Translations under genes and position numbers: made by a program
In this document: positions 13,936-22,564 of the stretch, piece by piece
Layout of the letters: each line of letters begins with the position of its first letter
Numbering within the stretch: position 1 is the stretch's first letter
Notes under the pieces: generated by a model
What the model saw: only the letters and a program-made list of their open reading frames with translations
What the model was told of the DNA's origin: nothing
Databases searched by the model: none
From: a virus
Taxonomy: Duplodnaviria; Caudoviricetes
Length of the DNA: 64,000 nucleotides
Virus record (IMG/VR): IMGVR_UViG_3300029288_000113
Span: 1 to 64,000 of that record
Reading direction: 5' to 3' (one strand)

Positions 13936-13993
13936 CCTGCTATGGCCCCAGGCCGGGGCCATTTCACGGCTGCCACACCGATCATCGGGCAGG
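13936..13993 (-). ncRNA. Hammerhead ribozyme HH2 (type I, CCGAUGA core variant)
   Basis: CCUGC CCGAUGA U CGG..CCG U GAAA UGGCCCC..GGGGCCA UA|GCAGG. Confidence 0.65.
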
Positions 13994-14305: not shown

Positions 14306-14321
14306 CTAATGTATTGGTTTT

Positions 14322-14382
14322 CTGTGATCGGGACACGAGGCCCCGGTTTCGGTCGGTCACCAGCCGACCATCATCAGGCAGG
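14322..14382 (-). ncRNA. Hammerhead ribozyme HH3 (type I, possibly degenerate)
   Basis: CCUGC CUGAUGA U GGUCGG..CCGACC GAAA CCGGG..CCCGA UC|ACAG; two C.A mismatches next to the cleavage site. Confidence 0.6.
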
Positions 14383-14924: not shown

Positions 14925-14988
14925 ACCCTCGTCAGGCATCGGTATTCACCGGTGCTTCCCCGTGCACCTCCGGGTCGGGGATTCGGGC
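14925..14988 (-). ncRNA. Hammerhead ribozyme HH4 (type II, U15.1-A16.1 variant)
   Basis: GCCC GAAU CCCCG..CGGGG AA|GCACCGGU..ACCGAUGC CUGACGA GGGU; paralog of HH1. Confidence 0.7.
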
Positions 14989-14991
14989 TGG

Positions 14992-16419: not shown

Positions 16420-16479
16420 CCTGCGAGCCCCGAAGACTGGGGCTTTCGGTTGGGCATCACCCAACCATCATCAGGCAGG
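16420..16479 (-). ncRNA. Hammerhead ribozyme HH5 (type I, canonical core)
   Basis: CCUGC CUGAUGA U GGUUGGG UGAUG CCCAACC GAAA GCCCC..GGGGC UC|GCAGG. Confidence 0.9.
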
Positions 16480-16852: not shown

Positions 16853-16912
16853 GGCTTCATCAGACCGGCCATCCAGCCGGTGAGGCAAGGTGGTTGGCCT
16901 TGCCTTTCTGCT
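16853..16912 (-). ncRNA. Hammerhead ribozyme HH6 (type II, minimal stem II)
   Basis: GC A GAAA GGCAAGG..CCUUGCC UC|ACCGGC UGGAUG GCCGGU CUGAUGA A GCC. Confidence 0.75.
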
Positions 16913-16914
16913 TG

Positions 16915-17490
16915 TTAGACATTCACGAAATACTGGCCGGCGTCGTTTTTGGAGATGGTCACTTTTTTGTCCTTGGCCAGTCTGTTAGGCAATTGAGCAT
17001 TGATCGTGGCCTTCATTGCCTTTTCATCCCGATCCGGAAAGGCTTGTTTCAGCTCGGCCAGGATTTCGGCTTTGCTGTGCGGACCGGATTTGATGATCTC
17101 CAGGATGGTAGAGATGACCCCAGGGGATTTGGTATTCTTGGCCAGGGTTGCTTTCTTAACGGTCGGTGCCGGCAAAGCCAACAAGGGGCTCAGGTCATTC
17201 AACACTTTGTTGATTAACGGAGCCTTATGTAAATAGGCATCCCGAAGGGACCAGACTTTGCGGCCGTTGCGAAAGGCATGCAGGTAACAATGAGAACCGC
17301 CCGGGTGCTGGTGGCGGTAGATAACCTTGATGTCCCGGAAAGAACCGGGGATATCGAAGGTGGATAAAGTGGGCTCGTAAGCCTTATTTTTCAAAGTGGC
17401 GTTATCGAAATCCCAGTTAATTTGCGGTAAAGCGTTGGTCAGGTTTTCACGGCGCTTTTGGCTTATGCTCGGCTCGATCTTGGTTTCCAT
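16915..17490 (-). CDS. Hypothetical protein with C-terminal winged-helix-like domain
   Basis: PGVISTILEII...KAEILAELKQAFPDR; lies between HH7 and HH6. Confidence 0.6.
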   Translation of the reverse strand: METKIEPSISQKRRENLTNALPQINWDFDNATLKNKAYEPTLSTFDIPGSFRDIKVIYRHQHPGGSHCYLHAFRNGRKVWSLRDAYLHKAPLINKVLNDLSPLLALPAPTVKKATLAKNTKSPGVISTILEIIKSGPHSKAEILAELKQAFPDRDEKAMKATINAQLPNRLAKDKKVTISKNDAGQYFVNV

Positions 17491-17520
17491 CTTCGTTCTC
17501 CTTTTATCTAATTTTTGGCT

Positions 17521-17577
17521 CCTGCTTTCCCGGTCGCTGCCGGGAATTCATCGGTGCCACCCGAATCGTCAGGCAGG
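17521..17577 (-). ncRNA. Hammerhead ribozyme HH7 (type I, U15.1-A16.1 variant)
   Basis: CCUGC CUGACGA U UCGG GUGGCA CCGA U GAAU UCCCGG..CCGGGA AA|GCAGG. Confidence 0.75.
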
Positions 17578-17579
17578 GG

Positions 17580-17888
17580 TTAGCACATGAGGTCATAGCC
17601 GGTATCGCCTGGCTTTGGATACCAGTGCCCGTCATGCTCATTGGGTGCCGTTGCCAATTCGACCATTTCGACCTTGCTCAGCTTGGTGCAGCCGAAGCCA
17701 CAGAGGCCGGAACTGAACCCCACGGGGACATAGGTGAAATATTGGTCGTCATTCTCCAGGGTTTCGACGGTCTTGACCTTCACCTTGACACAATATTCGA
17801 CTGTCTGATTGACCTTGTGCCAATCCCGGGCGAAGGTGGCCTTGCCTTTTTCTGTCATTCCGTAGATGGTATTGATCTTGAGTCCCAT
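17580..17888 (-). CDS. Hypothetical protein
   Basis: ORF with RBS; stop lies just before HH7. Confidence 0.55.
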   Translation of the reverse strand: MGLKINTIYGMTEKGKATFARDWHKVNQTVEYCVKVKVKTVETLENDDQYFTYVPVGFSSGLCGFGCTKLSKVEMVELATAPNEHDGHWYPKPGDTGYDLMC

Positions 17889-17906
17889 TTTTTTTGCCCC
17901 TTTTAT

Positions 17907-18242
17907 CTATATTTGATTTCCTGCTGCCATCTGCCTTATCCAGCGGCGGTAGGCTCCGATGGTCTTGAACCCTGCCTGCTTGGCATCTGCCTTCATTTCC
18001 TTGCTGAACCCGCAGATGTTTGGGTTGTGGGATCGGTTGGTTATGTACCAGTGTCCCCGGCAGTCATCCCAGGTCAGCTCTTTGAATAATACGATGTGGT
18101 GGAACCGGCCTGATTCCGAGATAAAAGATTGTTGGAAGTCGATGACCATCCAGCGGCGGCAATGGATGCACTGGACTGCCTCCCTGTAGCCGCCCCATTC
18201 CTTGTCTTCATCCGGGAACAGGTTGACCTTTGGCCTTGCCAT
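17907..18242 (-). CDS. Hypothetical protein
   Basis: AAGGAG RBS; CIHC motif. Confidence 0.55.
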   Translation of the reverse strand: MARPKVNLFPDEDKEWGGYREAVQCIHCRRWMVIDFQQSFISESGRFHHIVLFKELTWDDCRGHWYITNRSHNPNICGFSKEMKADAKQAGFKTIGAYRRWIRQMAAGNQI

Positions 18243-18272
18243 CTCTAGCTCCTTCGTTGAGGTATTTTGGCT

Positions 18273-18346
18273 TCCTAAGACGTTGCCTGCTCCTCTGGGC
18301 AGGCAGTGGGTTTCGGCCGGGAGCCACCCGGCCTGGTCACTTAGGA
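18273..18346 (-). ncRNA. Hammerhead ribozyme HH8 (type I, G3-C8 swapped core)
   Basis: UCCUAA GUGACCA GGCCGGG UGGCU CCCGGCC GAAAC..UGCCUGC..GCAGGCA..GUC|UUAGGA. Confidence 0.7.
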
Positions 18347-18607
18347 GAAGATTTTGACCTTAAATTTGTTGATTTTCTCTTTGAAGGTGATGTGGTTGAA
18401 GTGGATGGCCTCCAGGTAAAGCCACCCGTGCTTTACAACCACTGGGGCGTCTGAAGGAACTGTCCAGTTATGTTGGGCTATGCTGCGGGTGATTGCTAAG
18501 GGAAGGTGATGATGGAGCTTAAGGGCCTCAGTCTTGCAGGCATTGATGATTTGGTTGATATCAGTCATTAACTCCAACCCAGGGACGGTAATTTCTTTGT
18601 ATTCCAT
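18341..18607 (-). CDS. Hypothetical protein (first sizeable ORF of the early operon)
   Basis: AAGGAG RBS; its TAA stop forms part of HH8 stem I. Confidence 0.55.
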   Translation of the reverse strand: MEYKEITVPGLELMTDINQIINACKTEALKLHHHLPLAITRSIAQHNWTVPSDAPVVVKHGWLYLEAIHFNHITFKEKINKFKVKIFS

Positions 18608-18631
18608 GACCTTTCTCCTTTATCTAATTTT

Positions 18632-18790
18632 GGCTTCATCGGTTGGCCCTTCCAGGCCAAGACTGGGAATGAGTGCTATTCAGGTTTCTGGCCCGGTGTC
18701 CGTGTTTTCCGGTCGCCACCTGCTTAGGCCGGGTACTCGCCACTTCGGCCCCGCCACCGTTTCGCTTGTGTCTCATTCCCAGTTTCTGCT
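18632..18790 (-). ncRNA. Hammerhead ribozyme HH9 (type II, CCGAUGA core, ~98-nt insert in loop III)
   Basis: GC A GAAA CUGGGAAUGAG..(18674-18771)..CUCAUUCCCAG UC|UUGGCC UGGAAG GGCCAA CCGAUGA A GCC. Confidence 0.65.
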
Positions 18791-19252
18791 CGTTCCTTCT
18801 GTCATGGATTCGCCTCCCGGCCCGGGCAACTCCCCTGCCTGGTGGGTCCGATTCGTTTCTGGCCTATCGGGAAACCTTCAATGGCTTATTGGTTGATGTG
18901 GACTGCCTTGCCCTGACCTTTCCGGTGGTCTTCCTACCTGCGGTCTCCCCCAGGTTGGCCTCCCGGTTGCGCTTACTACCCGGTGCGCCAATTTTTGGTT
19001 TTGGCCTTATGCCTTCGCCCCTGGAAGGGCTTGCCCCGCCGGCCTCTAAAAAGGTCCCCGGTCTTGGACTCTGGCTGCCTTATGCTCCGGCCTGCTAAAT
19101 AATGTACCCTGGGTTAGCGGTGCTGCCGATGGGGGGCTATCTGCTACTTTGGATTATCGGGTGTCTGGCCTGCTCGTCCCGTCCCGCCCTTTATGTCCGG
19201 CCGCCTTGGCCCTCGCTCCATCCAACCTCCTTAATCCTTATTCTTACTTATT

Positions 19253-22083: not shown

Positions 22084-22160
22084 GACCCCATGACCCAATT
22101 GGATAGGGTTCCCGAATCCTAGTCGGGGAGTTGCAGGTTCGAGTCCTGCTGGGGTCACCA
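22084..22160 (+). tRNA. tRNA-Arg(CCT)
   Basis: GACCCCA/TGGGGTC acceptor stem, ACCC/GGGT D stem with A20, CCCGA-ATCCTAG-TCGGG anticodon arm, GTTCGAGT T loop, encoded CCA. Confidence 0.9.
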
Positions 22161-22487: not shown

Positions 22488-22564
22488 CGGGCCTTGGCGC
22501 AGCCAGGCAGCGCACGTGCTTTGGGAGCACGGGGTCCGGGGTTCAAATCCCCGAGGCCCGACCA
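22488..22564 (+). tRNA. tRNA-Pro(TGG)
   Basis: CGGGCCT/AGGCCCG acceptor stem, CGTGC-TTTGGGA-GCACG anticodon arm, GTTCAAAT, encoded CCA. Confidence 0.92.

Follow-up and report, generated by a model that had tools for sequence, protein, structure and literature searches.

The pair between C3 and G8 is the key feature that reconciled full-length hammerhead structures with earlier biochemistry, and the 2'-OH at position 8 is the proposed general acid of the ribozyme. The locus described here raises the question of whether nature has inverted this pair to G3-C8, and whether a hammerhead that carries the inverted form is still a working ribozyme. The locus lies in a 97.4-kb virus record of IMG/VR (IMGVR_UViG_3300029288_000113; Duplodnaviria, Caudoviricetes), the first 64 kb of which (64,000 nucleotides) were analysed and are referred to here as the window. 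An earlier note on this DNA had described a hammerhead with the core GUGACCA, a stem I of UCCUAA and UUAGGA, a 7-bp stem II, GAAAC, a GUC site and an internal loop in stem III. We find each of these parts, letter for letter, on the minus strand.

Inversion of the 3-8 pair has been studied in engineered ribozymes. The G8C mutation costs about 1e5-fold in rate, part of which is regained with C3G (PMC8495972). In the hammerhead of a Penelope-like element both single mutants are dead and the C3G/G8C double mutant is partly active (PMC11167929), and an exhaustive map of single and double mutants identified C20G+G25C, equivalent to C3G+G8C, as the sole rescuing combination in the CUGA..G motif (PMC9901934). 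The statement in the earlier note that compensatory swaps restore activity is thus correct in that rescue has been published, but too strong in that the rescue is only partial (PMC8495972; PMC11167929). Hammann's group further mentioned, as data not shown, that G17 gives a G3-C8 variant higher activity than the natural C17 does, because position 3 can pair with position 17 (PMC3884650). As for natural sequences, the only covariation described at the 3-8 pair is U3-A8 (PMC3088659; PMC4209133), and literature text searches of incomplete coverage returned no published report of a natural G3-C8 core.

Anatomy of the candidate

Read on the minus strand, the candidate runs UCCUAA-GUGACCA-GGCCGGG(UGGCU)CCCGGCC-GAA-A-C...G-U-C-UUAGGA, which is the helix order of a type I hammerhead: an open stem I, the core strand, the stem II hairpin, GAA, the stem III hairpin, N17 and the return strand of stem I (Table 1). 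Canonical letters occupy 11 of the 13 core positions, including the invariant U4, G5, A6, A9, G12, A13 and A14. The sole departures are C3 to G and G8 to C, placing G3 (18340) and C8 (18335) where they can form a Watson-Crick pair of a type, G-C, that lies outside the published natural consensus. A15.1 (18311) pairs with U16.1 (18280), and position 17 is a non-G, the C17 (18279) of the GUC site. The cut position is predicted from the rule that hammerheads cleave 3' of position 17, together with alignment to the covariance model R1 described below. Stem III has only two pairs at the junction before its internal loop, and its energy with the closing pair enforced is -11.6 kcal/mol. The last three letters of the 5' strand of stem I, UAA (18343-18341), are at the same time the stop codon of the upstream ORF.

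Loop II (UGGCU, 18326-18322) and the tail that follows stem I are complementary over 5 bp, as is typical of the family to which we assign the candidate, and the two covary across that family (UGGC/GCCA, UGGU/ACCA, CGACU/AGUCG, UUGACU/AGUCAA). The predicted pseudoknot, which the earlier note does not mention, would hold stems I and II side by side.

The same letters could in principle act on the plus strand instead, for example as a terminator or as antisense RNA hairpins, and the plus-strand fold is in fact slightly more stable (-39.4 vs -36.8 kcal/mol). However, no U-run follows either plus-strand hairpin, and the flanking genes, RBS, GAAA, GUC, pseudoknot and core are readable only on the minus strand. 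We therefore regard a plus-strand element as highly improbable.

Table 1. Positions in the window of the candidate, its parts and the other hammerheads of the same phage
Feature	Position	Strand	Details
Hammerhead candidate	18346→18273	minus	takes up the spacer between two minus-strand ORFs
Stem I, 5' strand UCCUAA	18341..18346	minus	pairs with UUAGGA, 6 bp
Core strand G3-U4-G5-A6-C7-C8-A9 (GUGACCA)	18334..18340	minus	aligned to CUGAuGA of model R1
Stem II hairpin GGCCGGG/CCCGGCC	18315..18333	minus	7 bp, first pair G10.1-C11.1
Core G12-A13-A14	18312..18314	minus	
Stem III	18280..18311	minus	A15.1-U16.1, C15.2-G16.2, then 4x2 internal loop and 7-9 bp distal helix
Predicted cleavage site	18278..18279	minus	after C17 (18279), before U1.1 (18278)
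Stem I, 3' strand UUAGGA	18273..18278	minus	
3' tail AGCCA	18268..18272	minus	immediately 3' of stem I; fully complementary to loop II UGGCU
Leader of downstream gene, AAAUACCUCAAC-GAAGGAG-CUAGAG-AUG	18240..18267	minus	RBS and start codon of ORF 18242-17907
Type I paralog	16420-16479	minus	R1 65.1 bits; R1 training member; canonical
Type I paralog	14321-14382	minus	R1 38.8 bits
Type I paralog	17521-17577	minus	R1 36.8 bits; inverted U15.1-A16.1
Type I paralog	13936-13993	minus	R1 34.2 bits; core CCGAUGA (U4C) at 13987-13993
Type II hammerhead	~18632-18790	minus	CCGAUGA (U4C) at ~18655-18661; stem III insert of ~98 nt (18662-18783)
Type II hammerhead	~14925-14990	minus	U15.1-A16.1 (GAAU ... A instead of GAAA ... 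U)
Type II hammerhead	~16855-16915	minus	canonical CUGAUGA; stem III 8 bp, stem I 6 bp

Membership of the hammerhead family

The training set of model R1 consisted of 26 canonical type I hammerheads, one of them taken from this phage and the remaining 25 from different viral contigs; the candidate was not among them. R1 scores the candidate (18274-18345) at 34.2 bits with an E value of 1.7e-6. With filters off, R1 finds exactly five strong matches in the window, all intergenic and all on the minus strand; the next best match reaches 12.8 bits, leaving more than 20 bits between the candidate and the background of the window. In the R1 alignment, stem II, loop II and the tail of the candidate follow the family consensus nearly letter for letter, which, together with the score, argues that the candidate belongs to the family by descent and not by chance.

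A descriptor without constraint on positions 3 and 8 was run over both strands of 1.56 Mb (3.1 Mb of strand); it required GAAA, U16.1, at least 5 bp in stem I and 4 bp in stem II, a short loop II and a stem III that is stable. It returned 32 elements with C-G, one with G-C, which is the candidate, and none with the other 14 combinations. Stricter descriptors do not recover the family, since A9 may be followed by an additional U, stem II may be bulged and stem III has an internal loop.

The hammerhead models of Rfam 15 have no match anywhere in the window, whether at the gathering score or at E<=10. This blank could be taken to mean that the intergenic spacer holds hairpins that resemble a hammerhead by coincidence, as could the observation that both strands fold about equally well. 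However, the fully canonical paralog at 16420-16479 also goes without an Rfam 15 match, so that the blank says nothing against the candidate. Moreover, the E value and the distance from the background, the absence of descriptor matches for the other 14 N3/N8 combinations, the near identity of stem II, loop II and tail to the consensus, and the presence of four paralogs in the same operon make a coincidence hardly credible.

We are nearly certain that the candidate is a genuine member of the hammerhead family with a natural G3-C8 core. The natural double covariation from C3-G8 to G3-C8 that the earlier note had proposed for a real hammerhead is borne out by the R1 score, the four paralogs, two further members described below and the published rescue. 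The same note had expected such a core to escape standard searches, and indeed a literal CUGANGA descriptor misses the GUGACCA core of the candidate, as does Rfam 15.

The operon and its other hammerheads

Both flanking ORFs, 18607-18341 upstream and 18242-17907 downstream, are on the minus strand and sit in a run of small early ORFs upstream of a gene for a UvrD-like helicase (13901-12363). Neither has a Pfam or PHROG family, and no close relatives of the two proteins were found in IMG/VR. The upstream protein (P0001) is an orphan among 5.8 billion proteins. For the downstream protein (P0002) there are three homologs, and the DNA was examined for one of them (L157), which shares 64% identity, keeps the leader AGCCAAAAUACCUCAAC.AAGGAGCU and has no ribozyme. 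In the ribozyme's stead, the L157 gene is preceded by a promoter-like site and a leader of ~400 nt (L157:4520-4595), and the conserved AGCCAA of that leader pairs with a nearby UUGGCU to form a small hairpin. No match was obtained by blastn of 17500-19000 against phage records or by R1 in 28 helicase-related phages (L002-L029), and no ribozyme-bearing ortholog of the exact locus was found, L157 being the sole homolog whose DNA was compared. Two tRNA genes are encoded on the plus strand of the window, at 22084-22157 and 22488-22561 (Rfam 56 and 61 bits).

The minus-strand operon is punctuated by at least five type I hammerheads plus type II copies (Table 1), with the four type I paralogs of the candidate occupying one intergenic gap each. 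Contigs from four sequencing runs extend over parts of the operon outside the core of the candidate, and no RNA run was found to contain this DNA. The paralog at 14321-14382 is imperfectly paired, with A.C mismatched at either end of stem I and C.A within stem III. In the type II copy at ~16855-16915, A.A flanks a stem II of 2 bp, and loop I (UGGAU) and the tail (AUCCA) make up a 5-bp pseudoknot. Among natural hammerheads, U15.1-A16.1 and a U10.1-U11.1 mismatch have been described as variants with reduced activity (PMC3088659). The array of this phage may accordingly include ribozymes that are slow or weak by design, or some that are dead, and the other off-consensus copies (U4C twice, U15.1-A16.1 twice) suggest that the phage may tolerate weak or dead copies. 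The 15.1-16.1 pair is likewise inverted in the type I element L065:2084-2142 (minus strand), which lies on an unrelated viral contig.

Canonical members of the family occur in dozens of viral contigs, often in arrays of 2-5. Arrays of 2-5 within 1-3 kb are seen in L087 / L103, L065 / L075, L135, L136, L047 and L036. Clustered hammerheads flanking single phage genes, and forms stabilised by a pseudoknot, have been described (PMC3088659). A family member usually stands directly after a stop codon, ahead of a AAGCCAAA-type tail and an RBS, and all of the ~40 non-redundant members found with R1 have C3 and G8.

Further natural G3-C8 elements

The earlier note had proposed a search of phage metagenomes for hammerheads with a GTGANCA core, and our scans of sequence collections did yield two more natural G3-C8 members, L162 from a metagenome and L204/L205 from IMG/VR, the latter two contigs carrying identical elements. 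A scan of the metagenome collection for G3-C8 cores with the stem I CCUGC/GCAGG gave 19 raw matches and one clear member, L162:188-259, which reads CCUGC-GUGAUCA-G(CU)GCCUGGG(UGGCC)CCCAGGC-C-GAAA-12 bp stem III-GUC-GCAGG with the tail AAGCCAAAC and scores 29.7 bits with R1. A scan of IMG/VR that was based on the tail and left stem I free (GTGANCA...CGAAA...GTH-N5-AAGCCAAA) gave 6 stretches, two of them real (L204 and L205). The element of L204 (L204:3518-3575, the same in L205) reads UUCCAU-GUGAUCA-G(A)GCUGG(UUGGCAA)CCAGC-C-GAAA-CUC...GAG-UC-AUGGAA-AGCCAAAAC and scores 29.1 bits. L162 and L204 have in common GUGAUCA, GAAA, GUC, a UGGC/GCCA pseudoknot, a stop codon just before the element, and a leader with an RBS downstream. 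Three other contigs (L159, L191 and L194) passed a loose filter and were set aside as unconvincing, with R1 scores of 16.5 bits or less or no match at all.

No hammerhead-like element was found among 27 raw matches to G3-C8 cores with the stem I CCUGC/GCAGG in 185,579 prokaryote genomes, or among 16 raw matches in IMG/VR to cores with non-C3/non-G8 letters and the same stem I. The canonical control with the AAGCCAAA tail gave 60 matches, ~54 of which were judged real, compared with the 2 swapped contigs carrying one unique sequence. By this comparison of the tail-based scans the G3-C8 swap is rare, amounting to a few percent of the AAGCCAAA-tail subfamily. Known swapped sequences number just three and represent about two lineages.

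The surroundings of these elements have features of their own. No protein similarity was detectable between L162 and the present phage. The upstream ORF of L162 (L162:185-199) uses U4-G5-A6 of the ribozyme as its UGA stop codon, and its last Ala codon (GCG) has G3 in third position, where C3 and G3 would be synonymous. After all three swapped elements the leaders end in GAAGGAG or GAAAGGAG, then 0-2 nt, then (CU or UC)AGAGAUG (window 18240-18258; L162:281-299; L204:3593-3612), and the downstream proteins are unrelated. AGAGAUG lies within 60 nt downstream of 3/3 swapped elements and of 0/49 other same-tail pattern matches (~43 of them real canonical elements).

Origin and retention of the swap

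Apart from positions 3 and 8, the core is canonical in each of the three swapped elements, and GUC and the UGGC/GCCA pseudoknot are retained; the helices of the three differ from one another by compensatory changes. In an alignment of the three with one paralog (A6), which was fitted to the model and is thus biased towards structure, 98% of cells pair and 11 of the 16 pairs are changed on both sides. Among 90 members, the candidate and L162 are each other's nearest neighbour, with 76% identity compared with at most 70% for the next. They are separated by at least four double compensatory changes, two per stem: A-U/A-U against G-C/C-G in stem I, and C-G to U-A and G-C to C-G in stem II. Within the same 90, L204 has as its nearest neighbours canonical elements with the pattern G(A)GCYGG-AYGGCAA, and the remaining swapped elements rank 57th or lower. 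Because the nearest relatives of L204 are canonical, a second origin is indicated, and the G3-C8 swap probably arose at least twice, judged by sequence relatedness.

If the swapped cores were products of decay in a family that sheds dead copies, mutants one step away from the consensus would be expected to outnumber the compensated form, which is two steps away. In a scan that allowed any N3 but excluded G at N8 there were at least 118 raw matches, and among the matches listed only G3-C8 elements had intact stems I and II; among the same listed matches, the 26 raw C3/non-G8 matches included none that was hammerhead-like. The swap, as far as these comparisons go, seems to have been kept by selection.

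Function of the candidate

We think it reasonably likely, from sequence comparison, that the candidate is a type I hammerhead that would cleave itself at a useful rate and cut the early polycistronic RNA between 18279 and 18278. After transcription, stems I-III and the pseudoknot would fold, with G3 pairing to C8, and the RNA would cut itself after C17. The folded ribozyme, bearing a 2',3'-cyclic phosphate, would then form the 3' end of the upstream message (ORF 18607-18341). For the downstream message (ORF 18242-17907), the first nucleotide would carry a 5'-OH and lie 36 nt ahead of the AUG, which stands behind the GAAGGAG RBS; the leader at 18240..18267 would form the 5' end region of this 3' product. 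We read the element as a working, probably slower ribozyme because C3G+G8C is, in published mutagenesis, the one core double mutant that rescues activity, if only in part. Cleavage is probably slower than in the canonical copies, since G3 can also pair with C17. C17 is present in all three natural G3-C8 elements, and for these the probability of a G3-C17 pair, which extends stem I across the cleavage site, comes to 0.79-0.98 by nearest-neighbour folding. The hammerhead secondary structure of the candidate lies 4.8 kcal/mol above the minimum free energy in this calculation, which ignores the pseudoknot and tertiary contacts.

The predicted trap helix also suits a copy that descends from a hammerhead and is catalytically dead or nearly so. 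Its fold would then have been retained for a different purpose, for example to protect the 3' end of the upstream message, to separate translation units or to let an RNase enter, and G3-C8 would owe its survival solely to keeping that fold. The partial extent of the engineered rescue (PMC8495972; PMC11167929), the weak junction-proximal part of stem III, the other off-consensus cores in the same array and the L157 homolog of the downstream gene that does without any ribozyme all lean the same way. However, a fold alone has no need of U4, G5, A6, A9, G12, A13, A14, A15.1-U16.1 or C17, and all of these are intact in three diverged sequences. In addition, the only two changes in the core are the exact pair that rescues catalysis (PMC9901934), and the matches listed contain no C3 elements with G8 changed and intact helices. 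We consider a dead copy possible, if doubtful.

The trap also admits a further reading, that the G3-C8 core marks a selected and functionally distinct subclass, resting in an off state until the G3-C17 pairing opens. If this were true, opening could be brought about by the loop II/tail pseudoknot, or could follow the passage of a ribosome that terminates at or next to stem I, and the early mRNA would be cut in a timed or translation-coupled manner. We hold such a subclass to be unlikely, and keep to the reading of a working, probably slower ribozyme.

The natural G3-C8 core, which occurs in several separate phage records, parallels in evolution what the rescue experiments did at the bench, and three natural sequences are now ready for measuring the cost of inverting the 3-8 pair. 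The candidate is also useful for improving hammerhead search descriptors. Because CUGANGA descriptors are blind to G3-C8 and Rfam 15 misses the whole family, canonical members included, surveys of phage ribozymes undercount.

Comparison with known hammerheads

The closest described systems are hammerheads of phages and prophages, natural U3-A8 cores and engineered C3G/G8C mutants. With the type I hammerheads of Perreault et al. 2011 (PMC3088659) the candidate shares the type I junction order, U4, G5, A6, A9 and G12-A14, A15.1-U16.1, C17, G10.1-C11.1, a Watson-Crick pseudoknot between stem II and the sequence beyond stem I, and the arrangement of several copies flanking single small genes in one operon. 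It differs from them in having G3/C8 for C3/G8 and a stem III that is interrupted by an internal loop after two junction pairs, and neither the candidate nor its canonical paralogs have an Rfam 15 hammerhead match.

The natural U3-A8 cores, reported by Perreault et al. 2011 (PMC3088659) and in Penelope-like elements by Cervera and de la Pena 2014 (PMC4209133), also change both sides of the 3-8 pair and keep the rest of the core. In the candidate, however, the pair is inverted to G-C and not replaced by U-A, and this inversion, unlike U3-A8, puts a pyrimidine at position 8 and a G at position 3 that is able to pair with C17. The engineered C3G/G8C mutants (PMC8495972; PMC11167929; PMC9901934) carry substitutions identical to the two of the candidate. 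Whereas those were made in the laboratory from eukaryotic or satellite hammerheads and are partly rescued, the swap described here is natural and stands in three phage-derived records, whose helices have since diverged.
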